Of a stretch of DNA of 64,000 nucleotides, positions 9,650-56,723 are shown in pieces. The notes under the pieces were generated by a model that had not been told where the DNA came from, made no database searches, and was given only the letters and a program-made list of their open reading frames with translations. Source of the stretch: Candidatus Berkelbacteria bacterium. GTDB taxonomy: Bacteria; Patescibacteriota; UBA1384; UBA12157. Position 1 is the stretch's first letter. Each line of letters opens with the position of its first letter. A program made the translations under genes and the position numbers. The stretch is from the NCBI GenBank assembly GCA_037127955.1, contig JBAXXI010000002.1:8377-72376 (forward strand), read 5' to 3'.

Positions 9650-10102
9650 ATGAATAATAAAAATATCTTACAAAATTTTAGAAAAGCTTTCTTCAGGGAA
9701 AAATATCGCTTTGATCAAGGCAATGCTTTTTTAGTATTCGTAAACTTTGCCCTCCTTGTCGCCGCTCTAATTAATCAAAATGGTGGTAAACCAGAAATAA
9801 TCAAATACTACGTCATCGGCGGTCTGTTTGCTACCTGGTTTTTAGGTTATATTTTAGATCGCGTGGTTCAAGTTCAGGATATCCAAGAACGCGTTATCTT
9901 AAAACGCAGCCCAATTTGGCAACAAAATTTTGCCCGTCACGACGATCATGAAGAAAAATTAGCAACGCTAATTTCAAAACTGGAAAATATTGAGAAAAGA
10001 CTGGAAAAAAATATTAAAAAGACAATGCCGACTAAAGAGTTGCAAACTCGAAAGAAATATGCTAATATTAACCTAAATCAGTCAAAAATGAAAACTGAAT
10101 AA
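9650..10102 (+). CDS. hypothetical membrane protein (2 TM plus coiled-coil tail)
   Basis: Hydrophobic helices LVFVNFALLVAALI and VIGGLFATWFLGYIL. Confidence 0.45.
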   Translation: MNNKNILQNFRKAFFREKYRFDQGNAFLVFVNFALLVAALINQNGGKPEIIKYYVIGGLFATWFLGYILDRVVQVQDIQERVILKRSPIWQQNFARHDDHEEKLATLISKLENIEKRLEKNIKKTMPTKELQTRKKYANINLNQSKMKTE

Positions 10103-10111
10103 AGGAAAAAC

Positions 10112-10411
10112 ATGCCAATTACCAAATCTGCGAAGAAATCATTAAAAGTTTCTCGCGCCAAACAAGCTCAAAATTACATCAAAACTGTTGCTTTAGAAAA
10201 AGCTATTCGTAAAGCCGATGTTAAAACCGTTAGCGAAGCTATTTCTCTAATCGATAAGGGTGCTAAAACTGGTTTAATGCACAAAAATAAAGCAGCCAGA
10301 CTCAAAAGCCAATTAACTAAGAAATTTGGTACACCAAAAGTCGAAGCTAAACCAGTAGTTAAAACTGAAGCTAAAGCTAAGACAGTCAAAAAAGCGGCTG
10401 CTAAGAAATAA
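10112..10411 (+). CDS. rpsT: 30S ribosomal protein S20 with Lys-rich C-terminal extension
   Basis: KSAKKSLK… and GLMHKNKAARLK motifs match S20. Confidence 0.85.
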   Translation: MPITKSAKKSLKVSRAKQAQNYIKTVALEKAIRKADVKTVSEAISLIDKGAKTGLMHKNKAARLKSQLTKKFGTPKVEAKPVVKTEAKAKTVKKAAAKK

Positions 10412-10417
10412 TTCAGT

Positions 10418-10512
10418 ATAAAGTTAAAAGTCCAAAGTTAAAAGTTGCTTGGAATTACTATAAATATGATTTTTTCCATCTACTTTAAACCTTAAACTTT
10501 AAACTTTTAACT
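10418..10512. repeat. heptamer-tandem palindromic element (AAGTTTA/AAGTTAA type) in rpsT-lepB spacer
   Basis: Left arm AAGTTAAAAGTCCAAAGTTAAAAGTTG. AT-rich loop. Right arm ACTTTAAACCTTAAACTTTAAACTTTTAACT is its approximate reverse complement. Confidence 0.7.
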
Positions 10513-10527
10513 GTTTGCTGGAGGGGT

Positions 10528-11109
10528 ATGAATCAAATTCAACAGGCGCTATCACCTAATACCAAACAAAAAATCATGTATGGAACAGGTTGCGCCTATG
10601 AACTCACAAAAGGAATCATTGTTGTGGCAATTGTCATAACCTTGATTCATTTTTTTATTGCCACCATTGCCATTGTCGACGGTATTTCTATGGAACCAAA
10701 TTTTCATACTGGCGATTACTTGATCGTTGATCGCTGGGACTATAATTTTGGTAAACCTGCCCGCGGCGATGCGGTTGTCCTACGCTTTCCTGGTGATCCT
10801 GATCACAAAAAATATATTAAAAGAATTATTGGCCTACCTGGCGAACATATTAAAATTGCTGACGGCCAAGTTTTTATTAACGATAAACTTCTTAACGAAA
10901 CATATATCCCAGGCACGACCGAAACAACTTCACCATCACGGGTAATCGACGAAATAGTCAAGCCTGATGAATATTTTGTCATGGGTGATAATCGTATGAA
11001 TTCCAATGATTCGCGCATCTGGGACACGGCCGGCTCTCGCTTCTTAATCGGTAAGGCCTGGATTGAGGTTTGGCCTAAACCAAAACAAATCGAAAAAGTT
11101 AATTACTAA
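10528..11109 (+). CDS. lepB: signal peptidase I
   Basis: SMEPNF…GDYLIVDRW, KRIIGLPGE and YFVMGDNRMNSNDSR boxes. Confidence 0.9.
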   Translation: MNQIQQALSPNTKQKIMYGTGCAYELTKGIIVVAIVITLIHFFIATIAIVDGISMEPNFHTGDYLIVDRWDYNFGKPARGDAVVLRFPGDPDHKKYIKRIIGLPGEHIKIADGQVFINDKLLNETYIPGTTETTSPSRVIDEIVKPDEYFVMGDNRMNSNDSRIWDTAGSRFLIGKAWIEVWPKPKQIEKVNY

Positions 11110-11174
11110 ATCGATTGCAATTTAATTTAAAATTATCTAGTATAAACTAAGAATACACTTAGGGGGATTTTAAT

Positions 11175-11390
11175 ATGCCAAAACGAGCCTGCAGTTCCTT
11201 TAGGCAAAACGCCATCGGAATTTTAAATCAAAGGCCAAAACCTTTAGAAATCGGCGGACAAGCTAATTCCGCCTATGTCGTTGATCGACTATCTGATCAA
11301 GATAACGATCACTTTCTCGAGTGCAGACCATGCAAAAAATTTGTCATTAATCAGGACAGACCAAACCCTTCCCCAGACAATCCGGCTTAA
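11175..11390 (+). CDS. hypothetical small protein (71 aa)
   Basis: Strong RBS AGGGGGA 7 nt upstream. A terminator lies immediately downstream. Confidence 0.35.
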   Translation: MPKRACSSFRQNAIGILNQRPKPLEIGGQANSAYVVDRLSDQDNDHFLECRPCKKFVINQDRPNPSPDNPA

Positions 11391-11400
11391 GCCGGATTTT

Positions 11401-12927
11401 TTAAACTGTTGGTTCGTGCGATTTATCTAAACTCTCGCCAATATAAGAGATAATTGGAAAAAGTTCACCAGCAAAAGTCTCAAGCGTTACCACCGAGGTA
11501 TCTGATTCATACCAATCTGGTTTGGCATAAGTTTCACTCATAAAACGTTTTGTCCATTCAACTTCAACCCCAAAAACAATCGCGTAAGGCAAAAACAAAT
11601 TATACCTGTCCTCAAGAGTCGAACCACCGTCGATTCTGCCGTTCAATTCCAAATATTTCTTAAATTGCATCCATTGACGCAAGGTTGTGGTACCGACCAC
11701 GCTTCGAGTTGGCATCAAATTAGATAAACCAATAATAACGCTGGCCGTAATCATTTGACCAACCCAGGCAAACAAAAGATATTTTGGTTCAGGTCCCCAA
11801 ATCGCCGTATAAAAAAACCCGGCTAAACTCAAAAACAGTAAACCAATACCGGTAAAACGCCAATAAAGGTGAATCACCATTGGGTTTTGAACAAAATAAC
11901 CACGTTTAGTTGCCTCATTGTAAATATTAAGGTAAACCATGGCGATTTTTTTCGAAAAGATATGGCGACCAATCCTCATCTCCACATCTTGACCAGTACT
12001 TTTGTATTTATCAGGTTCAAAAATCTTTGAAAGTAAAATTCGTTCGAATTCGTTCAATTCCGGTAAAGTTTCTAAGTTTAAGCTTTTACGCTTACCAAAA
12101 GAGAAAGTCCCGTCAGCGTGATGGGTAATAAAAAGATATTTACGTCTAGCTAAATCAATCAAAGTAGCCGCGATTTCGCGCGAACCGACTTTACCGTCCA
12201 TCAAGGCGCCGACAATCGCCGGTGGACTATCGTTTGGCGGTAAATTGACTACTTTTTTACTATTGTAAAAAATTTGATCCTGGCGACGTCTAACCACCAT
12301 AAAAATCAACAAAATTAAGGTGGCTAAAGGTAAAATTATAGCCAAAACTACATAACTTTGAGCCGGAATTTGAGCCAAATAGTAATTAAATTTTTTAGTA
12401 ACAGGCGCATCTAAAACACCAAGTGGCAAATCAGCCACAATTGTAAAAGAAGCTTGAGCATCGATATTAGTTGCTTCATAAACCAAAGTTCTTGAATCCG
12501 CCATGTATTCTTTATGACTTTCCACTCCATGAACTGCATAAACTCGTTGGTTAATTTGTGCTTGCGTCACATCGGCCGGTAAATGCATGACGGCCTTAAA
12601 GTTTCCGATAAAAACACCGGGGGCATCCAACACGATCATGCTAATTTCATACTTATCTGGTAAAATTTTCAAATTTCGAGAATAATTCTTAGTCTCGGTT
12701 AAAACATGACCATCAGACGTCACCGCGATATCTAAAACCTGATCTTCCACCAAACCTTCGTTTGGCACGCTCGCAATTTCAAATGCTGCACTGGTTTTAT
12801 TACTTTGAGAATTTACTAAAAAATAACCGCCACCAAAAACTGCGATTACCATTAAAAACGTAAAAAGTTTACGCCAATAAATACCTGAATTTTTCAGTAA
12901 TTGATTAATTACCTGCCAAGTCGTCAA
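11401..12927 (-). CDS. polytopic membrane protein, DUF2207-like topology
   Basis: N-terminal TM, an extracellular domain, a TM followed by an LPPNDSPPAIVGALMDG segment, and a C-terminal TM cluster. The family assignment is from memory only. Confidence 0.5.
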   Translation of the reverse strand: MTTWQVINQLLKNSGIYWRKLFTFLMVIAVFGGGYFLVNSQSNKTSAAFEIASVPNEGLVEDQVLDIAVTSDGHVLTETKNYSRNLKILPDKYEISMIVLDAPGVFIGNFKAVMHLPADVTQAQINQRVYAVHGVESHKEYMADSRTLVYEATNIDAQASFTIVADLPLGVLDAPVTKKFNYYLAQIPAQSYVVLAIILPLATLILLIFMVVRRRQDQIFYNSKKVVNLPPNDSPPAIVGALMDGKVGSREIAATLIDLARRKYLFITHHADGTFSFGKRKSLNLETLPELNEFERILLSKIFEPDKYKSTGQDVEMRIGRHIFSKKIAMVYLNIYNEATKRGYFVQNPMVIHLYWRFTGIGLLFLSLAGFFYTAIWGPEPKYLLFAWVGQMITASVIIGLSNLMPTRSVVGTTTLRQWMQFKKYLELNGRIDGGSTLEDRYNLFLPYAIVFGVEVEWTKRFMSETYAKPDWYESDTSVVTLETFAGELFPIISYIGESLDKSHEPTV

Positions 12928-17182: not shown

Positions 17183-17273
17183 TATTTAGTTACAAGATTA
17201 GCTATGTCTACTTGTGACCGCCGTGGATTTTCCCGGCAATTGTCTCCCGCTTAGCGGGAAAGGAACCTTAACA

Positions 17274-18179
17274 ATGAAGAATATCTTCAGTCTCGGAATG
17301 GCGCTTATACTGGCGCTTATTCTTACTCTGACCACCGCAGGTTGCGATGGCGGAAACGCAAAAAAATTGTCACCATCAGTGCCAAACTATCAGATTACAG
17401 TTAGTGCTCCCAACGATTCAGCCCAAAAAGTCAATCAGGATTTTGACGGTACCGGCTTTACTGCCTATACCGGACACCTGTATTTCGATTTAATTGTTGC
17501 TGGAACCAGAGGTGGCGCGCCTTCAGCAGATTTCCAATTATGGAAGTCGAGCGAACCGCAAAACTGGAATTCACCGAGCGACGATCTTAAAACCTTTACC
17601 AAGGTTTGTGATCTCGCTTACGAAAACGGCGAACTGCCCAATTATTGGTTCTTCGAACCAGGGCGTTATCTGATTAAGGCGTTTGCACTAAATTCAAAGG
17701 TTGAATACACGCATACACGGTTAACAATTAACAAAAAACCTGTAGTCGTACCAGTGATAGTGACGCCGCACTTGTCAATCAAAATGTCAGCCAGTGCCCC
17801 AAACGAAATCGGCGACAAAACTGTCACCATCGTTGTCAAGAACAATGGCGTAACCGCAGACAACATTACTGTCTCGGTTTTCGACTATTTTGACACCCCT
17901 GGCTCAATCATTGTTTACGCCGGCCAAAATGGCTTACAGGACTGGTTAACCGATTCCGGACCGGTTGAAATCGGCTACGGCATGATTTTCAAACCAGGAA
18001 CGGTCAAAATGACCAAGTCCGGTATGACTAATCCGATCACCGACGATATAATTACCGACGTTTATAACGCTGGTATTATGTCAACCGGTGAAGAGATTAC
18101 TTTCACCTGTATTTACACATTCGACCAAAACGCCCCAGGTAAAGGCATGACCCGGAAGATCAAAAGAATCAAATTATAA
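17274..18179 (+). CDS. putative lipoprotein
   Basis: Signal peptide ending in an LTTAGC lipobox. ATG at 17274 after GGAAAGGAA. Consensus promoter upstream at 17155. Confidence 0.55.
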   Translation: MKNIFSLGMALILALILTLTTAGCDGGNAKKLSPSVPNYQITVSAPNDSAQKVNQDFDGTGFTAYTGHLYFDLIVAGTRGGAPSADFQLWKSSEPQNWNSPSDDLKTFTKVCDLAYENGELPNYWFFEPGRYLIKAFALNSKVEYTHTRLTINKKPVVVPVIVTPHLSIKMSASAPNEIGDKTVTIVVKNNGVTADNITVSVFDYFDTPGSIIVYAGQNGLQDWLTDSGPVEIGYGMIFKPGTVKMTKSGMTNPITDDIITDVYNAGIMSTGEEITFTCIYTFDQNAPGKGMTRKIKRIKL

Positions 18180-18263: not shown

Positions 18264-20204
18264 TCACCGGATCCCAATGACATTAGTTAATAGAGCTTGA
18301 GCAGTATAAAGTAAAAGTAAACCTAGGACTACCCCCATCATTAAATCTTTGGCTGTGGTGATATTTTCTTGGTTACCCTGACTGGTCATGTACAAGTAAC
18401 CTGCGTACATAAAAATAGCAATAGCTAGTCCGCTTAAAATTGGTAAACCCCAAACAAAAAACTTGCTAATATAGTCACCAATATTATTAACCCTACCAAA
18501 GTCTGTATCTATATTACCTGTGGTATTTGATTGAGTTACGGGCGCGCCCACCGTTACATTGATTTTCCGAGATGGCGCCGCACCTTGAGCATAAACTTTA
18601 CTAAAAATATTTAAGAAACTTTCTTTCTGATTTTCCTCAATTAAAACTCTAACTTCATACTCGTGTTCACCTTCAGGAACATTTCTATCAATAAAGGTTC
18701 TACTGGCAGTTTCTCCAACCTGTTTTCCATCTCGATAGATTATAAAATTGGCTGGTGCATATAAATCATAAAATTGACCGATATCGATCGTAACATCATA
18801 ATTATTAACCGAGCTATTTACGGCGCCACTACTGTTACTACAATTTATACCGATTGTGGTAATATTCGACGGATTAACAGGATTTCGAGTACTAGCCGAA
18901 ACCGTACCCTCTTGTTTACAGTAATCTGTTTGATCGTTCGATTCGTTTTCATTAAAAACCTTAACCCTAATCAAATGATCGCCAGCACCTGTTCCCGAAG
19001 CAGATGTATTCCAGACATAATCAACAGTTTGATCCTCGCCAGTCAATAAACCGTGTGATTTCTGATAAAAACATTGGCCATTTTCAGGATTAGCGCATTT
19101 AGAACTCTTACTACTAACCCATAAATAATAAGTATAACCTTTTAACTTTTTAAAATTAATTTTTATTGGTGATTTCTGACCAAGTTTAATTTCACTCGGT
19201 GTGGTGATAATAATATCGCGTCCGCTTGATGGTATGACTGGATCGACTACTTTTGTCTGAGTCGGACTTGAAACAGTTTTATCGGGCGAAGTTGACGAAT
19301 CAGAATGAGGCTTACAACTATTTACTCCTGAATCAATATTATTTGGTGTGTTACCCTGCATTGAAACAACTTCTGCGCCAAGGTCACGATTAGTAATACT
19401 TAACAAAATATTCTTACCGCTTGGACAAGCCTGACGATACTCACTAGTAATTTTAGGAATATTAATACTTTGACCTGACTCACCAATAAAAACCTTCCTT
19501 GACAACCACTGAGTACCACTAAAAACCGTATTTGTCCCCTCTACTGGCAGATTCTCTCGACCCAACTGATCAATCGATGTAACAAATTTAACTTCATGAT
19601 TAGTATTTTTCCTGATTTTTGCTGCAAAAGGTTCAGTTTCAAAACTTTTACCGCTACCAGAAACTTTAAATATTAAAGAATTATCCTTTGGCACAGTTAA
19701 AGTCATAGTGACGGTTTCACCACTATGCCATTGAAAAGCTGGTGAAATAGGCGCCATATTCAAGCCGCTAGCTTCTGTTCTCCAGTAAGGACGAAAAACT
19801 ATCTGAGTTTGACTCGTATTGCCATTTTCGTCTTTACCAAGTTCCCATTCTAAACCAACATCTGATTCTTGTCCGTTAACATCTTTTATACCAAAATAAA
19901 TATCTGGATTATCCTTGGACTTACAATAATTATTAGAGGAATAAGTAACAGTCTGAAAACGATTATCATCAGGCTTAACACTGCCTAAAACAACGGTCGC
20001 CTCAATACCGGTAAAATTCCCCCGACTAGTATTTTTTAAATAATAAGCACCAGGAAAACAAGATTTTGAACTAACCATATTGTTAAGCTCATCCGCCGAG
20101 GAAAAAGGATTGCCTAAAACAAAAAACAAGATAATTAAAAAAACAATTATGATCAATGAGTACAACCAATATTTTTTGGCTTTAAATAGATTTCTTAATT
20201 TCAA
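18264..20204 (-). CDS. large surface protein with N-terminal TM and C-terminal VirB2/TrbC-pilin-like double-TM domain
   Basis: N-terminal anchor helix and roughly 550 aa of Ser/Thr/Asn-rich ectodomain. The C-terminal 70 aa has two hydrophobic helices separated by a short polar loop (…VWGLPILSGLAIAIFMYAGYLYMTSQGNQENITTAKDLMMGVVLGLLLLYTAQALL…). Confidence 0.55.
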   Translation of the reverse strand: MKLRNLFKAKKYWLYSLIIIVFLIILFFVLGNPFSSADELNNMVSSKSCFPGAYYLKNTSRGNFTGIEATVVLGSVKPDDNRFQTVTYSSNNYCKSKDNPDIYFGIKDVNGQESDVGLEWELGKDENGNTSQTQIVFRPYWRTEASGLNMAPISPAFQWHSGETVTMTLTVPKDNSLIFKVSGSGKSFETEPFAAKIRKNTNHEVKFVTSIDQLGRENLPVEGTNTVFSGTQWLSRKVFIGESGQSINIPKITSEYRQACPSGKNILLSITNRDLGAEVVSMQGNTPNNIDSGVNSCKPHSDSSTSPDKTVSSPTQTKVVDPVIPSSGRDIIITTPSEIKLGQKSPIKINFKKLKGYTYYLWVSSKSSKCANPENGQCFYQKSHGLLTGEDQTVDYVWNTSASGTGAGDHLIRVKVFNENESNDQTDYCKQEGTVSASTRNPVNPSNITTIGINCSNSSGAVNSSVNNYDVTIDIGQFYDLYAPANFIIYRDGKQVGETASRTFIDRNVPEGEHEYEVRVLIEENQKESFLNIFSKVYAQGAAPSRKINVTVGAPVTQSNTTGNIDTDFGRVNNIGDYISKFFVWGLPILSGLAIAIFMYAGYLYMTSQGNQENITTAKDLMMGVVLGLLLLYTAQALLTNVIGIR

Positions 20205-20222
20205 AATCCCTCCTTAAATTAT

Positions 20223-21536
20223 TTAGCCATTCATTCTTTTAAGTAAAGCATCTTTGGCAATTTTGCGATCAGACCAAGGAATTTTGTGATCTCCGACCAC
20301 CATACACTCCTCGGCGCCTTTACCAGTAATTAAAACTATATCACCTTTATAAGCTAGGTTTACAGCTTTCTCAATAGCCGCTTTTCGATCCAGCATTTTA
20401 AAGAAATTTTCACCTTCAATTTTTGGTTTCTTTGGGTCAGCCCCACGCGGCACACCACCGGCTACTTCTTCGATAATTTTATTAGCATCTTCGGTATAAG
20501 GATCTTCGTTAGTCACGATCACGATATCGGCAAATTTACCGGCTAGTGCTCCAAGAATCGGCCGCTTAGTTTTATCGCGATCACCACAAGAACCTAAAAC
20601 CGAAATAATCCGCGCTTTTTTAGCCATAGTTAAGGTTTGATAAACTTTTTCCAAAGCATCTGGTGTGTGAGCATAATCAATCAAAACCGCAAAAGATTGG
20701 CCCAACTCCACTTTTTCCATACGTCCAGGCACAAGCTCTAATTCGTCTAAGGCACGCTTGGCCACATCTAAATGGATTTTTAAGGCGTAAGCCACCGAAA
20801 GAGCGGCTAGGGCATTATAAATGTTGAATTTGCCAGGAAGCTTTAAATCAATAGCAATTTGACTAGTTGGTGTCACCACGGTAAACATCGAGCCGGTCGA
20901 TTCTAGAATAATCTTCTTAGCCAAAATATCCGGTCGACCCTTACGACCACGCTCTGGGCTTTCTGTACCATAACTCAAGGTTGTTCGAGACGGCATTTTC
21001 TCCAAGTACTCAAAAGTGCGTTCGTCATCATGGTTGATAATATTAATAGTTTTGCCAGTATTAAAAAGCTGACCTTTAGTATTTCTGTATTCATCAAAAG
21101 TTTTGTGATAATCCAAATGATCGTGAGTCACGTTAGTCATGACAGCCACCTGATAATCAATCCCAAAATTACGATTTTGAGCAATCGCATGAGAAGTCGT
21201 TTCCACAATTACCCAGTGGCACCCCGCCTTAAGGCAGTCCGCTAAAAACTTCTGAAGAGCAAACGGCGAAACCGTAGTCATTTTACTGGTATTAACCCAT
21301 TCTTCCTTATCAATTTTAAAGTTAATAGTCGTGGCCATACCAACCCTATAATTCGCCTTTTCTAAAATTCTGGCGATCATGTTACAGGTCGTGGTTTTAC
21401 CATTTGTACCAGTCACACCAATAATTTTGAGCTTTCTTCCAGGATAGCCATAATAAGTCGCCGCCAAAATACCCCTGACTTTGTGGGTCCAGAGGATAAA
21501 ATTTGGGGAAACAAATTGTTTGAGAAACTGCTTCAT
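20223..21536 (-). CDS. murE: UDP-N-acetylmuramoyl-tripeptide synthetase (MurE family Mur ligase)
   Basis: GVTGTNGKTTT P-loop, DYAHTPDAL motif and a C-terminal TNEDPYTED segment (MurE DNPR-region equivalent). Confidence 0.82.
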   Translation of the reverse strand: MKQFLKQFVSPNFILWTHKVRGILAATYYGYPGRKLKIIGVTGTNGKTTTCNMIARILEKANYRVGMATTINFKIDKEEWVNTSKMTTVSPFALQKFLADCLKAGCHWVIVETTSHAIAQNRNFGIDYQVAVMTNVTHDHLDYHKTFDEYRNTKGQLFNTGKTINIINHDDERTFEYLEKMPSRTTLSYGTESPERGRKGRPDILAKKIILESTGSMFTVVTPTSQIAIDLKLPGKFNIYNALAALSVAYALKIHLDVAKRALDELELVPGRMEKVELGQSFAVLIDYAHTPDALEKVYQTLTMAKKARIISVLGSCGDRDKTKRPILGALAGKFADIVIVTNEDPYTEDANKIIEEVAGGVPRGADPKKPKIEGENFFKMLDRKAAIEKAVNLAYKGDIVLITGKGAEECMVVGDHKIPWSDRKIAKDALLKRMNG

Positions 21537-28285: not shown

Positions 28286-28370
28286 CCCCGAACTTCACAT
28301 GCTATGCGAAACAAGCTTTTGTGTGATACAATATTAATAATCATTTATTGATTTATTGTCTGGAGGGGTT

Positions 28371-29639
28371 ATGAACTATTTGAAAAAATTAAATATAAAA
28401 ATTTTATATTATTTTATTTCGATTTTATTTTTATCAAGCGTTTTTACTCCTATTTCAAACATTAGAGCTCAGGTTCCATCAGCTGAAGGAATCTGTTGGA
28501 GTTGGTCAGGTATGCCAAATAATAGTCCTCAAGTTTCCATTAATAACTCTGATGGAACTCCTGTTTGTGGTACAAACTGGAAAAATGCAACTTCGAAGCC
28601 AACGGTTACCTCGCCATCAAGCGGGAGCACAACAACAACCAAACCCAGCACGACAACCACAACAAAATCAACCAGTCCTGCCAATAACTCTGGGGCCGTT
28701 CAAAACGTTAAAGCTTCACCATCAATCAATAATAATGTTTGCAAAGTCGTTCTTTCTTGGAAAAAACCTGCTAAAACTAACACTTCTTTTGCCCCTGCTA
28801 GTCCAGCTGACAATGTTAAATATGACGTTTCGGTTTTTGCTTTTTCTGGCGCAGTCAGCCTTAGTCCGCCTAATAATATTCAAGTTGTTGACTACAATAC
28901 CACTTCACTCACCTTTAATAATATAAAATGCGGTTTAACCTATAAGTACTATATTGTTACGAAAAGCCGCAATCCAAATACGACAGTATTTCAAATTGAA
29001 GATGGTAGGGCAAGTGGTCAATTTGCTGCTCCTATTGGGACAGCTGCTACCGCCTTTCCACCAGATGGAGCCATTATTGATTCACGTCAGAATGAAACCA
29101 CTAAAACTTATACGGGCACATTGCAATGGCGCGAACCGATCAACAAACCTGCTGGGAAAACGGGCAATGACCTTAAATACCGCTACACTCTAACAAAAAA
29201 AGGTGTAGCCAGTAGTCCGGTTACTGTTAACAAACCTCAAAGTGGTATCCCGGTTTTTACTAATATTAAATGCACAAACGAAGACTCAAGCGGTTGCGGC
29301 CAATACAAAGCTCTTATCGAAACCATGTTGGATGGCCAACCAATTGGCTCGCACACATCAGTCGTTACAATAGCCAAAGATGGACAAGCCGTCTCTCAAG
29401 CCGATAGTAATGGCCAAACCTTACTGGATATTGATAATTATGGTTCAGCTGATCAAAATGGAAATGCTGGTGAAAATGCTGCCTGCGGTAATGTTTGTGA
29501 ATCTAATGTATGGGGATGGTTTAATCCGGTCCAAGAAATAAAACATGTTATTTGCCAAATTCAATGCACAATTTTAGATTTTATTGCCGGAGCATTGGGC
29601 CAAGCATTTACTACAATTCTGCTACCAAATCTTTTATAA
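28371..29639 (+). CDS. secreted Thr-rich surface protein (possible FN3/Ig-like domains)
   Basis: ATG at 28371 lies after GGAGGGG. Signal peptide, then a TTTTKPSTTTTTKST linker. Hydrophobic C-terminus. Confidence 0.55.
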   Translation: MNYLKKLNIKILYYFISILFLSSVFTPISNIRAQVPSAEGICWSWSGMPNNSPQVSINNSDGTPVCGTNWKNATSKPTVTSPSSGSTTTTKPSTTTTTKSTSPANNSGAVQNVKASPSINNNVCKVVLSWKKPAKTNTSFAPASPADNVKYDVSVFAFSGAVSLSPPNNIQVVDYNTTSLTFNNIKCGLTYKYYIVTKSRNPNTTVFQIEDGRASGQFAAPIGTAATAFPPDGAIIDSRQNETTKTYTGTLQWREPINKPAGKTGNDLKYRYTLTKKGVASSPVTVNKPQSGIPVFTNIKCTNEDSSGCGQYKALIETMLDGQPIGSHTSVVTIAKDGQAVSQADSNGQTLLDIDNYGSADQNGNAGENAACGNVCESNVWGWFNPVQEIKHVICQIQCTILDFIAGALGQAFTTILLPNLL

Positions 29640-29648
29640 GAAATAAAA

Positions 29649-32354
29649 ATGTTTCAAAATTTTAAAAAAATTCCACAACTTTTATTCATTGCATTAGCTA
29701 TTTTTGGATTTGGCTATTTTTTGCAACATAATCATACAGATTTCAATACTAATATTGGTGTAGCCCACGCAGCCGTAACACTTGAACAATCGACCAAAAC
29801 CATAAATTCACTTCATGCCGAATTAACTTCAGCTACAGCTGCAAGTGAAGGCACTGCCTGGATCTTCAGCGTCTGGAAAGTCATGATGGGACTAGCCAAC
29901 GCTTTTGTCGCCATCATTTTGATTTTCTTTGCCTTTGTTAATATTGCCCATATCGAGTACGACACTTATCAACTCAAAAAAGCTTTACCGAAACTGATTA
30001 TTGGTATAGTTATGGCTAACTTTAGCATGCTTATTTGCCGCATGCTAGTTGATCTAGCCTCAGTCTTAACCGCTACTTTCACTCATAACCCAAAAGGTTT
30101 AATGGGTGGAATTATGTGCGCTATGGGCATTCATCCAAGTGGCAGTATCGGTGAATATTTTCTACAAATATTAGCTCAACAATGGCTCTGGATTCTTTTA
30201 GTTGTTTTGGCAGTCTTTATCTCGATTCTTTATCTAGGCATCTTATTACTCATTCGACATGGCGTTATCTTGGTTTTAGCAGCCGTCGCTCCAATTGCTT
30301 TTATTTTGCTCGCTTTTCCACCAACTGAAAGTTACTTTAAAAAATGGTGGGAATGGTTTGTTAGTTGGACTTTTATGGGTCCAATTATGACACTGATTCT
30401 TTGGATGGCTGGTATGGTTGGTGGCGCCGGAGAATTTACAGGCACAGTTTGCGCTCCAACTACAACTTTTAGCTGGCTCCGGGCGTTTACCACCCTGGCT
30501 TTACTCTATGTTGCCGGTATTGTTCCAAGTAAACTTGGTGGCGAAGTCATGGGCGCATACAAAAACGCGGTTCACGGCGCTGGTAAAGCTGCTTACGACA
30601 ATCCTTGGAGCAAACGCAAACGCGAAATCATGGGCAATGATCTAAAACACAAGTTTTATGGTAACACTAAACTTGGTCGCTGGATGGAACAAGGCGTCAG
30701 AAACGATGAAGCCATGCTTGAGGCACAAAAAAACGAAGAAGAAGTTCGCAAGGGTTTGCGCGACCTGACTACTCCTGACTCAACCGCTGAACGCAATGCA
30801 ATTGCTAAAGAACGTTTAATCAGATTAAAGACCGAACTTGAAAACCAGGGCGATGAAAGACTAGCTAAACATATGAAAATCAATATCGATGCCATTACTG
30901 ACACCGATTTAGCTAGCAAAAAACTCAAACGAGCCATGGATCAAATCAAGAAAAAAGGCATGACCGATGCCTACAAAGGCGCCAAAGGTGCAAAATTAAC
31001 TGAAGAAGATATTGAAGACGCTCAAGTTACTCGTGATCTTGACCAAGCTCAAAAACAACAAATGACGGCCGCTTATGACGACGATATTAAAGGTACGGCT
31101 TTGACTCAAAAAGATATTGAAGATGCTCGTGTGACCCGTGATTTAGAAGCAGCAAAAAAGAACAAAATGACACTGGCTTATAAAGGAGCAGGCGGCGATA
31201 AACTGGTTGAAGACGAACTTAAAGATGTTGTTGCTACTGGCAAAATGGAGAAAGCCAAAAACGATGCTACGGCTAGAGTTTATTTAGGTGCTACTGGTAG
31301 AAAAATGGCCGAATTTGAATCTGGTATTGCTAATTCACAAATGGCTATTGACAAAGTTAAAGACGATCAAAGAGTCTTAATGGCTACCGAGCGTTTAGCC
31401 GGCCATGAGATTATTCACGATTTAATTAAACAGTACGACAAAGACAACGAAGCCGCTGGCCGTCCATCAAACTTAAACAATGCTTATAAGGAAGTTGATA
31501 ACTTTACGATGGAATTGGCTAATGCTAAGACTGAACCAGAAAGAGTTGCCGCACAAGCTAAACTCGATATTGCCTTAACTAATTTAGAAACTGGAAAAAA
31601 AGCTTTTGCCGCCGACCTTCACAGTAAGGGTAAATTTGCAACAGCCAAAGACGCTGATGAATTTGTTGAAAATAGCCATTTACAACGCTACGAACGCACT
31701 AGACATATGGCTATTATCGGCAAGCGTGTTAATGACGATGCCACTGTCGATGCTCAAAGTATGTCTTCTAGCGCCGCTATCGGAGACTTGGTTAAATCAG
31801 ATGGCAGTCTCGACGGTGGTAGTTACGGCCCGTACACTTGGACAGCCAAGACCAATGAAGATTTCTGGAAAGGTGTTCGCTCTGACGATCCTGACTCCAG
31901 AGCTGGAGCCTTAGGTATTGCCACAAAACTTGATACCGTGAAACGTAAAATGCATGATTCTCAGACTCGAGGTGCGGCTATCAAGGATTACTCTAAGGTT
32001 ATTAGCGCCGGTAACCCTGAGTGTTTCAAAGCTCATATTTCTACAGCTATTCATGAATTAAAAGATGCTGAAAGAGCACAATTAGATAAAAGTCTTCGTG
32101 ATCGAGGTAAAACACCTGCAAGTGGTACAGATTTTACTTTAGAAGATTATAGTCGAATCTTAGGCGAAACAACTCTAGATACCACTACTCCTAATAGCGT
32201 TGAGAACAAATTTGCCAGTCGATTAATCAACTCTTTGCAACAAAATGATGATGCCGAAATAACTTACAAAGATGACGCTGGTGTCGATCAAACTATCAAA
32301 GGTGGTTTCACTGGTCTTGGTCGACAGTCACACTACTATGCCCGTATGGGTTAA
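29649..32354 (+). CDS. polytopic membrane protein, VirB6/TrbL-like N-terminal domain with about 500-aa charged repetitive C-terminal domain
   Basis: Roughly 6-7 TM helices in the first 300 aa with a VirB6-like topology (inferred, not searched). The C-terminal half contains internal repeats (DIEDAQVTRDLDQAQKQQMTAAYDDD / DIEDARVTRDLEAAKKNKMTLAYKGAGG). Confidence 0.4.
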   Translation: MFQNFKKIPQLLFIALAIFGFGYFLQHNHTDFNTNIGVAHAAVTLEQSTKTINSLHAELTSATAASEGTAWIFSVWKVMMGLANAFVAIILIFFAFVNIAHIEYDTYQLKKALPKLIIGIVMANFSMLICRMLVDLASVLTATFTHNPKGLMGGIMCAMGIHPSGSIGEYFLQILAQQWLWILLVVLAVFISILYLGILLLIRHGVILVLAAVAPIAFILLAFPPTESYFKKWWEWFVSWTFMGPIMTLILWMAGMVGGAGEFTGTVCAPTTTFSWLRAFTTLALLYVAGIVPSKLGGEVMGAYKNAVHGAGKAAYDNPWSKRKREIMGNDLKHKFYGNTKLGRWMEQGVRNDEAMLEAQKNEEEVRKGLRDLTTPDSTAERNAIAKERLIRLKTELENQGDERLAKHMKINIDAITDTDLASKKLKRAMDQIKKKGMTDAYKGAKGAKLTEEDIEDAQVTRDLDQAQKQQMTAAYDDDIKGTALTQKDIEDARVTRDLEAAKKNKMTLAYKGAGGDKLVEDELKDVVATGKMEKAKNDATARVYLGATGRKMAEFESGIANSQMAIDKVKDDQRVLMATERLAGHEIIHDLIKQYDKDNEAAGRPSNLNNAYKEVDNFTMELANAKTEPERVAAQAKLDIALTNLETGKKAFAADLHSKGKFATAKDADEFVENSHLQRYERTRHMAIIGKRVNDDATVDAQSMSSSAAIGDLVKSDGSLDGGSYGPYTWTAKTNEDFWKGVRSDDPDSRAGALGIATKLDTVKRKMHDSQTRGAAIKDYSKVISAGNPECFKAHISTAIHELKDAERAQLDKSLRDRGKTPASGTDFTLEDYSRILGETTLDTTTPNSVENKFASRLINSLQQNDDAEITYKDDAGVDQTIKGGFTGLGRQSHYYARMG

Positions 32355-32369
32355 TTCTTAAGGAGATAA

Positions 32370-33164
32370 ATGGACGATCCGATTTTAACCGACGATATAA
32401 TTACAATCGATTGGCAAAAAGTTGACGAGGCCAACGCGATTCGTGATGAAATTTGCGCCAAACCCTGGGATGAGTTAAAGAAAAACCCAGTGGTTTTAGC
32501 TAAAACTTTTTCTGAAGAATTCGAAGTTACGCCAGCCGAAATGATCATGATGGATGAAGCCGAGCTACTCGACTCAGTTTTTGAACATGCTGATAAAATC
32601 CCTGAGGAAAACAAAACCGCACTGATCAACCTCTATAAGGATTATAATTTTCACCAAGATGTGGCAACTATTCAAAATGATTATCAAAGTTTAGCCCCGG
32701 AAATTAACTTTCACGAGAATCTCGATCTTGAAAAAACTCAAAATCAGGCTAAACGAGTTTCTCAAGGGTTGGAAAACTTGCGTTTGATCACCTTTTACAA
32801 AGAGGCTGAAGACTTGACTATCGAAACTAATGCGCTAAAAACTGTTTCGGCTGAACGGGAAAAACTTTTATTTGACAAAGTCGACCAATTACTCAAAATG
32901 ATTAAAGCGGCGACGGACGAAAAGCGCCAACTGAATATTAACGAAATCAACGAAATTATTGAGTTCGAATCAAAATTCGGCCGCAACAGCGTGGGGCTCG
33001 AAGATCTTAAAGAAGAAACCGATCCGCTAGTTTACCTAACCGTCGTTCAAAAAAACCGTAAAGCTTTGATGGTTTTAGCCGCCGCCGATCGCGAAGATTT
33101 GCGCGAAAATTTAGGCGATGCCTTTACGGTCGCAAACTTAATCGAAAAATATCGCATCGAATAG
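32370..33164 (+). CDS. acidic cytoplasmic hypothetical protein (264 aa)
   Basis: RBS AAGGAGA. Begins 16 nt after the VirB6-like gene, so likely co-transcribed. Confidence 0.5.
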   Translation: MDDPILTDDIITIDWQKVDEANAIRDEICAKPWDELKKNPVVLAKTFSEEFEVTPAEMIMMDEAELLDSVFEHADKIPEENKTALINLYKDYNFHQDVATIQNDYQSLAPEINFHENLDLEKTQNQAKRVSQGLENLRLITFYKEAEDLTIETNALKTVSAEREKLLFDKVDQLLKMIKAATDEKRQLNINEINEIIEFESKFGRNSVGLEDLKEETDPLVYLTVVQKNRKALMVLAAADREDLRENLGDAFTVANLIEKYRIE

Positions 33165-33195
33165 TTTAGTACTAGTAATAAACTAACTCAACCTC

Positions 33196-33220
33196 TTGAC
33201 CCCCACACCCAATAAAATTT
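33196..33220. repeat. left inverted repeat flanking GIY-YIG gene (TTGACCCCCACACCCAATAAAATT)
   Basis: Reverse complement AATTTTATTGGGTGTGGGGGTCAA matches the motif at 33504..33530 in 22 of 24 positions. Confidence 0.6.
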
Positions 33221-33473
33221 ATTCTAAAGAATGCTTAATACGTTTTTTGAGTTGATTAAAAGCATTACTTCTTAATTTTAAGTTATGCTCTCTATGTCTC
33301 GCATCCTTTTCCGCCTTGTAAACTTCGGTATAAACAAGCTCGAAAGGAATGCGAGTTTTTGTTGAAAAAACTTTTCCACTATTATGTTCCTCTAACCTTC
33401 TTTTTAAATTAGAGGTCGAACCAATATATAATTTTTCATCTTTTAAACTTTTCAAAATATATAAACAAAACAT
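33219..33473 (-). CDS. GIY-YIG nuclease family protein (stand-alone, 84 aa)
   Basis: LYIGSTSNLKRRLEEH matches the GIY-YIG core (YIG…R…E). Confidence 0.85.
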   Translation of the reverse strand: MFCLYILKSLKDEKLYIGSTSNLKRRLEEHNSGKVFSTKTRIPFELVYTEVYKAEKDARHREHNLKLRSNAFNQLKKRIKHSLE

Positions 33474-33503
33474 GTATTAATTTTATCATATTTTGAAAAA
33501 ATG

Positions 33504-33530
33504 AATTTTGTTGGGTGTGGGGGTTGACAA
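33504..33530. repeat. right inverted repeat flanking GIY-YIG gene (AATTTTGTTGGGTGTGGGGGTTGACAA); also supplies the -35 of a consensus promoter
   Basis: TTGACA at 33524-33529, then 17 bp, then TACAAT at 33547-33552. Confidence 0.6.
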
Positions 33531-33740
33531 ATGGGCCTTTTTGTGTTACAATAGCATGTTCTTGAAAAATGATTAATTTAGTCATTTGGATAGTTACCTT
33601 AAAAATAATTCCAATTCTGCTTTAGATTGGTTTACATAGAAAAAGCCTTTCCGGCTAGTTTATTTTGCCAGGCCTTTTGCCCTGGAAGCGTTTTATAACG
33701 CACGACAGGGTCAATTGGACCCGCCACAGGAGATACTGTA

Positions 33741-34634
33741 ATGAAAAACACTCTGCTTGCCGCCATTTTAATGGCCATCATGACCTTAATCATAGGGTCA
33801 ACCTGTTTTGCTGCCGAAGCAGCCTGGACAACTAAGGGTAAACCTGCCTGTTTTGATGATTTAAATACCAATTTAAATTTTAATCAAAACCCGGCTAACC
33901 CGCCTGCTAACCCCACCTATATCCCTGTTAAGGGCGATCAAGGTGATCAGGGTCCAAAGGGTGACAAAGGCGAACCTGGAAAAACCATTGTCAAGACCGT
34001 CGTGAAGTATGCTCATGCTCACAGGAATCACACTTCAACTTCAATCGGTCACGAAAAGGTTTACCAGGAATTAAAAAAATGGAAAATCGCCTCTCAAGGT
34101 GATATTGATCGCAAGATCGCCGAACAAAAGTCCATTGATAAAAAAGATGGCAAGTCAGAAAACAAACCTGACACGACCGTGACCAAAGAGTCACAACCAC
34201 AGGAGAAGAAAATGTCAGAAACGTTAATTGGTTTTATCGCGGCCTTAATATTCATTGCAGCTGTTAGTATCACTTTAGTGATGTTAAACAATGCCAAAGA
34301 AGCTGCCGTATTGAAAGCTGAAGCTGCCAAGCTCGAAGCCGCTGAAAAAGAGCGCAAAGAAGCTGCTGCTGAACGAGAAAGAATTGCTCGCGAAGATCGT
34401 CTCGAAAGAGAACGCAAAGAAGCAACGATCAATGAGATTAAATGGACAATGGCTGGTAATATTGTTTCAAAACAATTCAGCCAAAAAAATGACCAGGAAG
34501 TTGAAAATTCCGCCAATATTATTGGCATCGGCAATTTCAGCTCCAAATCAAGTCCTGTCCGTATAACATCGGATAGATCTGATACCACTACTGATGCGAC
34601 CGGGGACGCCGGAGGCGCAATCTCTGATATCTAA
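33741..34634 (+). CDS. membrane protein with short collagen-like Gly-X-Y repeat and Ala/Glu-rich coiled coil
   Basis: Signal/TM at the N-terminus, GDQGDQGPKGDKGEPGKT, a TM (LIGFIAALIFIAAVSITLVML), then EAAKLEAAEKERKEAAAERER. Confidence 0.5.
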   Translation: MKNTLLAAILMAIMTLIIGSTCFAAEAAWTTKGKPACFDDLNTNLNFNQNPANPPANPTYIPVKGDQGDQGPKGDKGEPGKTIVKTVVKYAHAHRNHTSTSIGHEKVYQELKKWKIASQGDIDRKIAEQKSIDKKDGKSENKPDTTVTKESQPQEKKMSETLIGFIAALIFIAAVSITLVMLNNAKEAAVLKAEAAKLEAAEKERKEAAAERERIAREDRLERERKEATINEIKWTMAGNIVSKQFSQKNDQEVENSANIIGIGNFSSKSSPVRITSDRSDTTTDATGDAGGAISDI

Positions 34635-48756: not shown

Positions 48757-48757
<1 letters not shown>

Positions 48758-48945
48758 TGACAAATCCTAATATTATAGAATACTTTTTAACTTTCTTATT
48801 TTTGGCTTCTTTAGTAGGTACAATTTTTGGATTTATTAAAAAAATAAAATGGCTAAAAATAACTGGTATTAGTGTCTTAATTCTTTTCTTGTTTTATATC
48901 GGTTTTATTAGCTGGATAGCTTTTCAAATAAGTAGTTGGGATTAA
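48757..48945 (+). CDS. small 2-TM membrane protein (62 aa) inserted between atpD and atpC
   Basis: ATG overlaps the atpD stop (TAATG). Two hydrophobic helices. Confidence 0.35.
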
Positions 48946-49588: not shown

Positions 49589-50071
49589 GTGCCGCAAAAT
49601 ATAGATCTAGAGGACAAAATCGTCGGGCCACTCACGCTGACCCAGTTTTTGTATGTCCTAGGTGGTGGTTTGCTTGACTATATCTTGTTCCAATCTTTAG
49701 GTAAAAACTACTTCGGAATTTTCCTTTTAATCGGCGGCCCAATCGCCATCATTGCTTTGTCTTTAGCTTTTTTTAAGGTTCAAGAACAACCTTTGTCACA
49801 CTTTATTACTGTTGGTATCAGTTATTTAACTAGACCAAAAGTTAGAATCTGGAAAAGACTAGATAGCTACCCAACTGTTTTAACCGAACCACCAAAGAAA
49901 AAAGAAGAAGAACCGATTATTATTAAAAAACACTTAGAAAAAAGCGAATTAGACCAGTTAGCCTATAATTTAGACACTTTTCAGTCAGATAAACCAGAAG
50001 AGAAAAAGAAAATTGGCAGTATTACCAGCGCTTTTGAACAATTATTAAAAGAACAACCAAAACAAAAATAG
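49589..50071 (+). CDS. PrgI/VirB3-like T4SS membrane protein
   Basis: DKIVGPLTLTQFLYVLGGG followed by two TM helices. Sits upstream of the VirB4 genes as in Gram-positive T4SS. GTG start. Confidence 0.5.
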   Translation: MPQNIDLEDKIVGPLTLTQFLYVLGGGLLDYILFQSLGKNYFGIFLLIGGPIAIIALSLAFFKVQEQPLSHFITVGISYLTRPKVRIWKRLDSYPTVLTEPPKKKEEEPIIIKKHLEKSELDQLAYNLDTFQSDKPEEKKKIGSITSAFEQLLKEQPKQK

Positions 50072-50146
50072 ACTTATAGTAATTAAGACTTTTAGACTTA
50101 TAGAGGCGAACTATAAGCCTATAGATCTAAAAGTCTATAAGTCTGA
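50071..50146. repeat. heptamer-tandem palindromic element (TAAGACT/TATAGAC type) upstream of 50160 gene
   Basis: GACTTATAGTAATTAAGACTTTTAGACTTATAGAGG-CGAAC-TATAAGCCTATAGATCTAAAAGTCTATAAGTCTG. Confidence 0.65.
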
Positions 50147-50159
50147 TGCAGGAGGGGAA

Positions 50160-50849: not shown

Positions 50850-50889
50850 TTAGATTAAGGCTTGACGCGGAAATTTTCTGAGGAAAATT

Positions 50890-52935: not shown

Positions 52936-52947
52936 ATTTATCAAAAA

Positions 52948-54147: not shown

Positions 54148-54177
54148 TTTTGATTAAAACAAGAGGGACAAAATAAA

Positions 54178-55215: not shown

Positions 55216-55222
55216 GGTCAAA

Positions 55223-55636: not shown

Positions 55637-55672
55637 CTAAAAAAGCAGTACATTTAAGTACTGCTTGCTGTA

Positions 55673-56611: not shown

Positions 56612-56723
56612 GAATTTTCCCCTTTTTAAATAAGATGATTGTAGTTTACGCTTTTTCTCGAGAAAAGTCAAGGGATTATTTATAATTTTGCTAAGAAAAT
56701 GCTATGATAAATTAAGGAAGAAT

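Follow-up and report, generated by a model that had tools for sequence, protein, structure and literature searches.

A modular VirB2-like (PF18895) pilin with a large N-terminal ectodomain in a Candidatus Berkelbacteria genome

Results

A complete reading frame encodes a 646-residue protein with a C-terminal pilin module

Within the window, the 64,000-nucleotide stretch of Candidatus Berkelbacteria DNA analysed here, the minus strand carries a complete open reading frame for a modular VirB2-like (PF18895) pilin of 646 residues at positions 18264–20204 (stop codon at 18264–18266). The frame is unbroken, begins with a TTG codon at 20204, and is preceded by a strong ribosome-binding site, a Shine–Dalgarno AAGGAGG read directly from the sequence at 20209–20215 on the same strand, 4 nt upstream of the start. 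The stop codon of an upstream murE-like gene lies at 20223–20225, 18 nt before the TTG, and the pilin gene is probably co-transcribed with femAB and murE-like cell-wall genes. The protein is identical to the NCBI entry 'MAG: pilin [Candidatus Berkelbacteria bacterium]' (P0001), and 7 contigs carry the identical sequence; an ortholog of 971 aa with the same architecture (P0002) occurs in an independent data set. An artefactual fusion or frameshift joining two genes was rejected on the basis of these 7 contigs together with the ortholog.

A Kyte–Doolittle profile of the protein contains three hydrophobic segments (residues 13–31, about 582–604, and about 620–643). The double-transmembrane layout that a first-pass annotation had described at the C-terminus was borne out by AlphaFold2, which predicted a hairpin of two helices (residues 575–606 and 612–643) with pLDDT above 90 and a 5-residue polar loop, QGNQE, between them. 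Together with a preceding TDFG motif, these elements make up a pilin module spanning residues 563–646 (18267–18518, minus strand). Of the two pilin profiles that the same annotation had proposed searching, one matched and the other did not: T4SS_pilin (PF18895) exceeded its gathering threshold of 26.6 bits, scoring 27.1 bits on the full-length protein (residues 573–641 against positions 3–70 of a 71-position model) and 33.1 bits (E 5.8e-8) on the isolated C-terminal 101 aa, whereas TrbC/VirB2 (PF04956) remained below its threshold of 27.9 bits, at 13.0 bits for the full-length protein and 17.5 bits for the isolated module. In NCBIfam, NF045849 (Mycoplasma ICE pilin-like) matched the hairpin over 73 of 80 profile positions at 27.3 bits (E 2e-6), below its curated cut-off of 40, and there was no other match for the 646-aa protein.

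The module holds the PF18895 motif YAGYxYMTSxGN...AK as YAGYLYMTSQGNQENITTAKD, and four residues (G57, S63, G65, and K74) are invariant in an alignment of pilin modules (A3). The module can be aligned over its whole length with about 100 stand-alone pilins of 95–130 aa and retains their YAGYxYMTSQGN...AKD motif, and stand-alone pilins recovered in an exhaustive search reached up to 59% identity to it. All 38 of the aligned stand-alone relatives match PF18895, and 26 of these 38 close relatives also match PF04956 weakly, at an E of 0.1 or better (best E 1.8e-7). Against a custom HMM of 107 pilin modules, the target scored 104 bits. The C-terminus is thus not the plain two-transmembrane anchor lacking pilin similarity that the annotation had named as the opposing case, because it matches PF18895, aligns end to end with stand-alone pilins, and shares 88% identity with the small pilin P0155 described below. 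Its sequence places the 646-aa protein, as a modular member, in PF18895, the family of VirB2-like T4SS pilins of Patescibacteria. The small-protein layout of this family, in which the hairpin follows a signal peptide almost at once, is departed from here by about 525 intervening residues; that layout is a typical trait rather than a strictly defining one.

Neither phmmer with the C-terminus nor the 107-sequence HMM found a pilin paralog among the six-frame ORFs of the window, and when GTDB representative genomes were scanned with the module, the sole matches were two distant Saccharibacteria loci, with no close relatives. Searching PDB sequences with pilin profiles (hmmsearch) returned no solved pilin, only artefactual summed matches to designed 'Pizza' repeat proteins, and full-length phmmer against PDB sequences gave insignificant matches alone (haemagglutinin and staphylococcal nuclease; E 0.014 or worse). 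Structural comparison of the hairpin with solved conjugative pilins was non-discriminating. Pilins with extensions are frequent in this family: among the 94 pilin-module proteins in the set of top matches, 34 are stand-alone, 26 are tandem, 26 have an N-terminal extension of 61 aa or more, and 8 have internal modules or C-terminal extensions. The tandem 'poly-pilins' carry up to 6–7 modules per chain.

The ectodomain is predicted to comprise an enzyme-like head, a stalk, and two further beta domains

At the N-terminus, residues 1–37 (20094–20204, minus strand) form a probable Sec signal peptide, with a basic n-region (KLRNLFKAKK), an h-region of 18–19 aa at residues 13–31, and a c-region reading GNPFSSA↓D, where the arrow marks the putative cleavage site. 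The hydrophobic segment that had been annotated as an N-terminal anchor is present, but an anchoring role is not what it suggests: by analogy with stand-alone pilins, a Sec signal peptide that is cleaved is probably the better description. The Ser/Thr/Asn-rich ectodomain of the first-pass annotation was recovered as residues about 38–562, roughly 525 aa with a Ser+Thr+Asn content of 28%.

The first folded unit of this region, head domain A (residues 45–285; 19350–20072, minus strand), was modelled by AlphaFold2 with pLDDT above 90 for residues 50–250 and assigned through Foldseek to a concanavalin-type beta-sandwich of the glutamic-peptidase (G1)/YncM fold. Matches to G1/YncM-type structures had E-values of 5.9e-7 to 7.5e-6 and TM-scores of 0.55–0.59 on the target; they included the glutamic peptidases 2ifr (E 5.9e-7, TMt 0.56), 2ifw (TMt 0.59), and 1s2b, and YncM (4hfs, TMt 0.59). 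Head domain A has many homologs and no Pfam family, and R82, D98, Y103, W120, R142, Q213, E217, T224, and E278 are invariant in the family alignment. Peptidase_A4 (PF01828) did not match the target and matched 3 of 28 head-domain homologs weakly (best E 2e-4), and a head-domain profile found no match among PDB sequences. By hhalign, the head family aligned with SGP (query sequence 99% identical to a database entry) at a probability of 10.8% and with a 56-sequence G1 profile at 6.5%; the peptidase link of the head is therefore one of fold only. In these low-confidence alignments (SGP numbering), Gln53 falls opposite Asp115, which is conserved at 90% or more, Gly55 opposite Gly117, Trp58 opposite Trp120, and the catalytic Glu136 opposite a non-conserved position, so that the canonical G1 Gln/Glu dyad appears not to be conserved.

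The head is followed by a Ser/Thr/Pro-rich linker, or stalk, at residues 286–328 (19221–19349, minus strand), which is predicted to be disordered from its composition and low pLDDT (below 50 for residues 250–294 and 300–328). Beyond it lie an Ig-like beta-sandwich, domain B (residues 329–442; 18879–19220, minus strand), which is common to the large pilin fusions P0070, P0094, and P0097, and a small Ig/FN3-like beta domain C (residues 455–555; 18540–18842, minus strand). Elsewhere, domain C is found repeated within giant surface proteins, and it also lies directly ahead of the pilin module in pilins of 310–340 aa.

The pilin module tracks a small pilin of the same genome

The genome encodes a stand-alone pilin of 108 aa (P0155). 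Its gene opens a PF18895 array of 5 genes, which sits on the same 228-kb contig about 13.6 kb past the end of the window. The fusion module and P0155 are 88% identical without gaps (74 of 84 residues), and their last 34 residues are identical. At the DNA level, identity is 84%, with dS 1.02, dN 0.08, and dN/dS 0.079; read from these values, the within-genome near-identity of the two modules is one under purifying selection. Recent gene conversion was considered as the source of the 88% identity and ruled out because dS is about 1.0. In the 971-aa ortholog P0002, the module is 71–74% identical to the small pilin P0164, and the modules of the two orthologous fusions share 51% identity; VirB4 is 80% identical between the two genomes. 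Each fusion module is thus far closer to a small pilin than to its counterpart, and therefore the module tracks the local small pilin.

The point of fusion also corresponds between the two proteins. The ectodomain ends about 3 residues ahead of the TDFG motif, and the predicted signal-peptidase site of P0155, AHA↓Q (AHA↓QVATDFG), lies 4 residues before the same motif; by this alignment, the ectodomain is grafted at the position where the mature chain of an ordinary small pilin begins.

A T4SS-like cluster lies in the same window

As the first-pass annotation had reported, the window also contains a T4SS-like gene cluster, on the plus strand at 49589–59252, about 30 kb from the 646-aa pilin gene. 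It comprises a PrgI/VirB3-like gene (49589–50071), a split VirB4 (50160–50849 plus 50890–52935), a VirB1-like gene encoding an SLT and C39-like peptidase protein (52948–54147), and, on the same strand up to 59252, three unnamed membrane or secreted proteins; an opposite-strand ORF occupies 55673–56671 within the cluster span. Pfam and NCBIfam searches for VirB6 or VirD4 in the large neighbouring no-match ORFs at 28–38 kb found neither. The fusion gene lies outside both this cluster and the pilin array, about 57 kb from the latter. In a relative (L001), the 971-aa ortholog P0002 is encoded by the next gene downstream of the VirB4 cluster, in the same orientation, and this synteny supports the proposed link between the fusion pilin and the T4SS. 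Two other large pilin fusions are located between lepA and murJ, away from T4SS genes.

Discussion

The reading we favor, and to which we give an even chance of being correct, is that the 646-aa protein is a modular VirB2-like pilin that combines the polymerisation module of a small pilin with a displayed head that binds or hydrolyses; incorporation into a pilus and adhesion are the inferred parts of this reading. The Sec signal peptide would export the chain. Like a VirB2-type pilin, the C-terminal hairpin would then insert into the membrane so that its two ends face outward and its loop lies on the inner side. The T4SS could take up the protein as a minor, substoichiometric subunit beside P0155, at the tip or sparsely along a filament or stalk. 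Because tight filament packing leaves no room for a 525-aa graft on each subunit, such uptake would have to be rare or terminal. Since the termini in solved T-pili face outward, the head would sit tens of nanometres away from the cell and might there bind, or else hydrolyse, some component of the surface of the host cell. The label 'adhesin' is our inference from this arrangement, and the modelled head fold is enzyme-like (glutamic-peptidase/YncM). A broader proposal, for which our doubt somewhat outweighs our confidence, is that Patescibacterial T4SS filaments consist of a small major pilin plus modular pilins bearing interchangeable enzyme or adhesin heads on their outward termini, with hairpins kept matched by concerted evolution.

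It is possible, albeit less likely, that the protein never enters a filament and is instead a membrane-anchored surface enzyme or binding protein, perhaps positioned beside the T4SS, for which the pilin-type hairpin is a C-terminal anchor. The gene adjoins cell-wall genes away from the T4SS and other large fusions lie near murJ, which favors this alternative; moreover, the ectodomain is sterically bulky, and the module is able to persist as an integral membrane unit, since tandem poly-pilins carry up to 6–7 of them in one chain. Also, no pilus has so far been demonstrated for any Patescibacterial T4SS, and reviews speak only of a potential for conjugative pili. However, a generic anchor has no need of 88% identity to one particular small pilin at a dN/dS of 0.08 with synonymous sites near saturation, nor would its module need to follow the local small pilin over its own ortholog or keep the conserved loop motif intact, and the ortholog P0002 is embedded at the end of a T4SS operon.

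Glutamic peptidases (family G1) mature autocatalytically. The head shares their fold, and the ectodomain gives way to the module at the start of the mature small pilin. Both observations would suit a precursor that is cut near TDFG, possibly by its own peptidase-like head, to yield a small pilin of the ordinary kind and a secreted, soluble enzyme. We consider such processing improbable: ahead of the module there is neither a signal-peptide-like hydrophobic stretch nor a recognisable cleavage motif, the available low-confidence alignments show no conservation of the G1 catalytic residues Gln53/Glu136, a near-identical small pilin already encoded in the genome would make the product redundant, and the Ig-like spacers and stalk suit display rather than a pro-enzyme. 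Least probable is a plain two-transmembrane anchor with compositional resemblance to pilins, or an assembly or frameshift artefact joining two genes, given the above-cut-off PF18895 match shared by all 38 aligned stand-alone relatives, the 88% identity of the module to the array pilin P0155 with 104 bits against the custom HMM, the continuous frame with its strong ribosome-binding site, and the recurrence of the protein on 7 contigs and of its architecture in an ortholog from another data set.

The proposed modular pilin has its closest counterparts in the Patescibacterial PF18895 pilins, which include the Candidatus Southlakia epibionticum ML1 array and the arrays described by Quinonero-Coronel et al. 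(2025; PMC12102498) and which share its two-helix module and loop motif. Those systems belong to the same phylum and to the same monoderm (MPF-FATA-like) T4SS type, with PrgI/VirB3, VirB4, and VirB1-like genes, and the target genome likewise holds a typical 5-gene array; unlike them, the target carries about 525 aa of folded ectodomain before the module, and its gene lies outside the array and the T4SS cluster. We found no description of such ectodomain–pilin fusions in the searchable literature. VirB2/TrbC/TraA (PF04956) and the archaeal CedA1/TedC resemble the target in having a signal peptide followed by a hydrophobic helical hairpin, and in solved pili the pilin termini are on the outside of the filament. 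In contrast, the target scores below the PF04956 cut-off, lacks a detectable sequence match to any solved pilin, has a huge N-terminal extension, and comes from a monoderm; no cyclisation or processing enzymes were identified. Mbov_0395/MMCAP2_0565 of Mycoplasma ICEs (NF045849) represent another monoderm T4SS pilin-like protein, but the Mycoplasma proteins are small.

The modular type IV pilins of Streptococcus sanguinis, PilB with a vWA module and PilC with a lectin module, carry a bulky functional module on a pilin module and act as minor subunits that give the filament adhesive properties. The design principle shared with the target is one of analogy, not homology: the pilin fold and the machinery are unrelated, and the graft is C-terminal to the pilin module in PilB and PilC and N-terminal to it in the target. 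VirB5/TraC at the pilus tip and Gram-positive surface adhesins of the PrgB type share the proposed role in T4SS target-cell contact; they are separate polypeptides rather than pilin fusions and have no sequence or fold relationship to the target. Neither a VirB5 nor a PrgB homolog has been reported in Patescibacteria, so the target-contact role is left vacant.

A large part of bacterial diversity falls within the Patescibacteria (CPR), whose members mostly live attached to other microorganisms. S. epibionticum, the one tractable species, cannot grow epibiotically without its T4SS and pilin arrays (PMC10633639; PMC12857230). The 646-aa fusion pilin, encoded by a tiny bacterium of parasitic type, is a testable candidate for a host-contact element of a T4SS that is reported to be essential in related bacteria. 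If our reading is correct, the modular pilin concept would widen from type IV pili to VirB2-type pilins. Were the broader proposal true, the VirB2 superfamily would gain its first modular pilins, and these would form the part that recognises the host in a secretion system that is essential but opaque in its mechanism. Host-contact proteins of uncultured epibionts could then be sought by a sequence rule, namely a fusion whose module nearly matches a small pilin encoded alongside it in the genome.

The head domain is of interest in its own right. Its beta-sandwich fold is shared with G1 glutamic peptidases (scytalidoglutamic peptidase, 2ifr/1s2b), Bacillus subtilis YncM (4hfs), and CPAVM1 (8xai), whereas the target head has no Pfam match and has its own invariant residues. 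Head domain A thus reveals an unnamed, widely distributed extracellular family that, as modelled, combines a G1-peptidase fold with invariant polar residues of its own.

Gene context and domain organization

The open reading frame at 18264–20204 on the minus strand encodes a 646-aa protein from a TTG start codon, with a strong AAGGAGG 4 nt before it. Kyte–Doolittle analysis gave exactly three hydrophobic segments (residues 13–31, ~582–604, and ~620–643), and the stretch between them is 28% Ser+Thr+Asn. We found the identical protein on seven contigs, the longest being CAZJOX010000001.1 (228,033 bp; GCA_964547745.1); together with the ORF and hydropathy data, this shows that the layout described in the first-pass annotation was right and rules out an assembly artefact. 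The identical database entry reads 'MAG: pilin [Candidatus Berkelbacteria bacterium]'. Only 18 nt separate the TTG from the stop codon of an upstream murE-like ligase gene, itself preceded by a femAB-family gene, and this order and spacing make it probable that all three genes form one transcript. The convergent neighbor (17214–18179, plus strand) encodes a product of 321 aa that starts with a signal of lipoprotein type (…LTTAGC/DGG) and matches no family; the NCBI product there is 301 aa.

Domain borders, drawn from search matches and an AlphaFold2 model (mean pLDDT 75), delimit a signal-peptide-like segment (residues 1–37), head domain A (45–285; 19350–20072 of the window, minus strand), a disordered Ser/Thr/Pro-rich linker (286–328), an Ig-like domain B (329–442), a small Ig/FN3-like domain C (455–555), and a pilin module (563–646).

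The C-terminus is a T4SS_pilin module

PF18895 (T4SS_pilin) scored 27.1 bits on the full-length protein, covering 68 of 71 model positions (cut-off 26.6), and 33.1 bits (E = 5.8e-8) on the isolated last 101 residues, bearing out the earlier suggestion of a pilin-family C-terminus. An exhaustive HMMER search over 1.84 billion representatives returned 1408 relatives at E ≤1e-3, dozens of which are stand-alone pilins of 95–130 aa that align to residues ~563–646 with up to 59% identity and share the motif TDxG...W..P....A...IYAGYxYMTSQGN.E.I..AKD.I.GV..G..LL with the module. These scores, the alignment, and the motif establish membership of PF18895 at the level of sequence. A direct match to TrbC/VirB2 (PF04956), also envisaged in the first-pass annotation, was not obtained, as the score was 13.0 bits for the full-length protein and 17.5 bits for the isolated C-terminus, below 27.9. 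PF04956 was matched at E ≤0.1 by 26 of 38 aligned close relatives of the module (best 1.8e-7), and kinship to classical VirB2/TrbC is plausible at the family level. NCBIfam gave a sub-threshold match to a Mycoplasma ICE pilin-like protein family. As anticipated, AlphaFold2 predicted a two-helix hairpin, with 32-residue helices at 575–606 and 612–643, the short loop QGNQE between them, and helix pLDDT >90 in the full-length and isolated-module models alike.

The module tracks a co-resident small pilin

P0155, a 108-aa stand-alone pilin on the same 228-kb contig, was recovered in a profile search that used the module as query. P0155 is the first gene product of a five-gene PF18895 array (108, 108, 200, 195, and 140 aa; CAZJOX010000001.1 139,640–142,032, or 10001–12393 of locus L002), which lies ~13.6 kb past the window's right end, beyond the T4SS cluster as seen from the fusion gene. 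A gene for a 447-aa SBP_bac_8 protein comes before the array, and a gene for a T2SSE/PilB-like ATPase, on the opposite strand, comes after it. Residues 563–646 of the fusion align without gaps to mature P0155, with 74 of 84 residues identical, including all of the last 34, compared to 23–31% identity with the other four array pilins. The corresponding DNA is 84% identical, with dS of 1.02, dN of 0.081, and dN/dS of 0.079; these values rule out a fresh duplication or recent conversion as the source of the likeness and show that strong purifying selection keeps both copies alike.

The pilin modules of the fusion and of P0002, its 971-aa ortholog in a relative, are only 51% identical, whereas the P0002 module is 71–74% identical to P0164, a different small pilin. 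Thus, what the fusion's module follows is a small pilin and not the orthologous module, which indicates module exchange or co-evolution and would be expected if fusion and small pilin must fit one assembly. The predicted signal-peptidase site of P0155 (AHA/QVATDFG) falls 4 residues ahead of its TDFG motif, and the fusion's ectodomain leads into the module as ...NTTGNIDTDFG, placing the graft point at the predicted mature pilin N-terminus.

Among 94 pilin-module proteins of the top matches, 26 carry an N-terminal extension of at least 61 aa and 26 are tandem multi-module chains. Together with ~100-aa Ser/Thr/Asn-rich C-terminal tails on two members of the array, these counts show that decoration of the module is a general theme. 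The 'poly-pilins' recovered in the exhaustive search (P0028, P0033, P0082, P0102, and others) contain 2–7 tandem T4SS_pilin modules per chain of 185–820 aa; P0028 has 6 PF18895 stretches (173 bits). Domains B and C recur in the large pilin fusions P0094, P0097 (848 aa; 10001–12547 of locus L006), and P0070 (621 aa; 10001–11866 of L007 and 4208–6073 of L008), and domain C also occurs as repeats within giant surface proteins and immediately ahead of the pilin module in 310–340-aa pilins. The P0097 and P0070 genes lie in a conserved lepA ... murJ neighborhood, not beside T4SS genes. One lepA–murJ fusion adjoins a NAGPA-domain gene; P0005 combines NAGPA with head domain A.

The ortholog closes a T4SS locus

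The T4SS-like system reported elsewhere in the window is present as a monoderm-type cluster at 49.6–59.3 kb, encoding a PrgI/VirB3-like protein, a split VirB4, an SLT plus C39-like peptidase (VirB1-like), and several unnamed single-pass proteins. The VirB4 N-domain ORF (50160–50849, plus strand; weak TraC_F_IV match) and ATPase ORF (50890–52935, plus strand; Gln/Pro-rich low-complexity stretch at its start) are 69% and 80% identical, respectively, to ORFs at 2–562 and 513–2480 of the 12.8-kb contig (L001) that carries P0002; because the relative keeps the same split, a sequencing error is excluded. A further cluster protein (56688–59252, plus strand; 854 aa) begins with an extremely acidic stretch of ~200 aa rich in Glu, Pro, and Ala, followed by one TM segment at ~245 and a long coiled-coil-like ectodomain.

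P0002 is the sole other protein with the full architecture; it shares the head and the B/C region, adds further repeats, and likewise carries a pilin module. Its gene lies immediately downstream of homologous T4SS genes in the same direction, directly after that of an 879-aa homolog (35–57%) of the 854-aa protein, and is followed by DciA and PycTM, which also flank the window's cluster. This synteny shows that the pilin fusion is the last gene of the relative's T4SS locus; in the present genome, rearrangement moved it ~30 kb from the cluster. The window's DciA-like gene (59351–59629, plus strand), at the cluster's edge, adjoins the PycTM (Pycsar effector transmembrane) gene (59626–60198, minus strand); L001 has the pair with DciA inverted, and no cyclase was seen beside the pair among the neighboring ORFs scanned.

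The ATP synthase beta gene is separated from the epsilon gene by an ORF of 62 aa (48757–48945, plus strand) that has two hydrophobic segments and is not pilin-like by a custom pilin HMM. Four co-directional genes at 28356–34634 (plus strand; 427, 901, 264, and 297 aa) gave no significant Pfam or NCBIfam match; the 901-aa product has four N-terminal hydrophobic segments, and the block could encode further envelope or secretion machinery.

Head domain A

Domain A matched no Pfam family and was modeled by AlphaFold2 with pLDDT >90. Its best PDB matches were scytalidoglutamic peptidase, of family G1 (2ifr, E = 5.9e-7; 2ifw; 1s2b), B. subtilis YncM (4hfs, TMt 0.59), and the protease CPAVM1 (8xai). 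The family (P0003–P0011 and others) is sizeable and unnamed, consists mostly of 280–350-aa secreted proteins, and also occurs in non-CPR bacteria in fusions with NAGPA and with T9SS sorting tails. Invariant in its alignment are R82, D98, Y103, G105, G117, W120, R142, G162, Q213, E217, T224, and E278, about ten of them polar or aromatic, a pattern indicative of a conserved site for catalysis or binding. Peptidase_A4/G1 was weakly matched by 3 of 28 family members, and profile–profile alignment with G1 peptidases was not significant (probabilities 10.8% and 6.5%). The alignment with the G1 profile pairs catalytic Gln53 with Asp115, and Glu136 with a position that is not conserved. We therefore name the head by its predicted fold, 'G1-peptidase/YncM-fold', rather than as a protease or an adhesin.

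Proposed role and alternatives

Published work already covers the VirB2-like pilins and pilin arrays of Patescibacteria, and NCBI labels this protein 'pilin'; in the searchable literature we found no description of large modular VirB2-family pilins, of a match between a fusion module and a co-resident small pilin, or of the domain A family. The solved T-pilus shows VirB2 as a U whose turn lies in the lumen and whose termini both face outward (bioRxiv 10.1101/2022.09.25.509369). Were the pilins of Patescibacteria to assemble in this way, a graft at the N-terminus would be displayed on the outside of the filament. Because a 525-aa graft could not sit on every subunit, we infer that the protein is likely a minor subunit co-assembled with P0155, at the tip or sparsely placed, where it would present a stalked head that binds or hydrolyses a host-surface component. 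It may fill the adhesin role in Patescibacteria, where neither a VirB5 nor a PrgB homolog is known (PMC12102498); both the T4SS and the pilin array are essential in S. epibionticum (PMC10633639; PMC12857230).

It is possible, if rather doubtful, that the hairpin is just a membrane anchor, as the dispersed position of the gene beside cell-wall genes, the two other fusions at lepA–murJ, the existence of poly-pilins, and the lack of an observed pilus would allow, but the near-identity of the module to one small pilin, upheld by selection, argues against it. Quite improbable is a processed precursor, as the protein shows no recognisable cleavage signal and the catalytic dyad did not appear in the low-confidence G1 alignment. 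A chance hydrophobic hairpin or artefactual fusion is the least credible reading, ruled out by the PF18895, P0155, seven-contig, and P0002 results.
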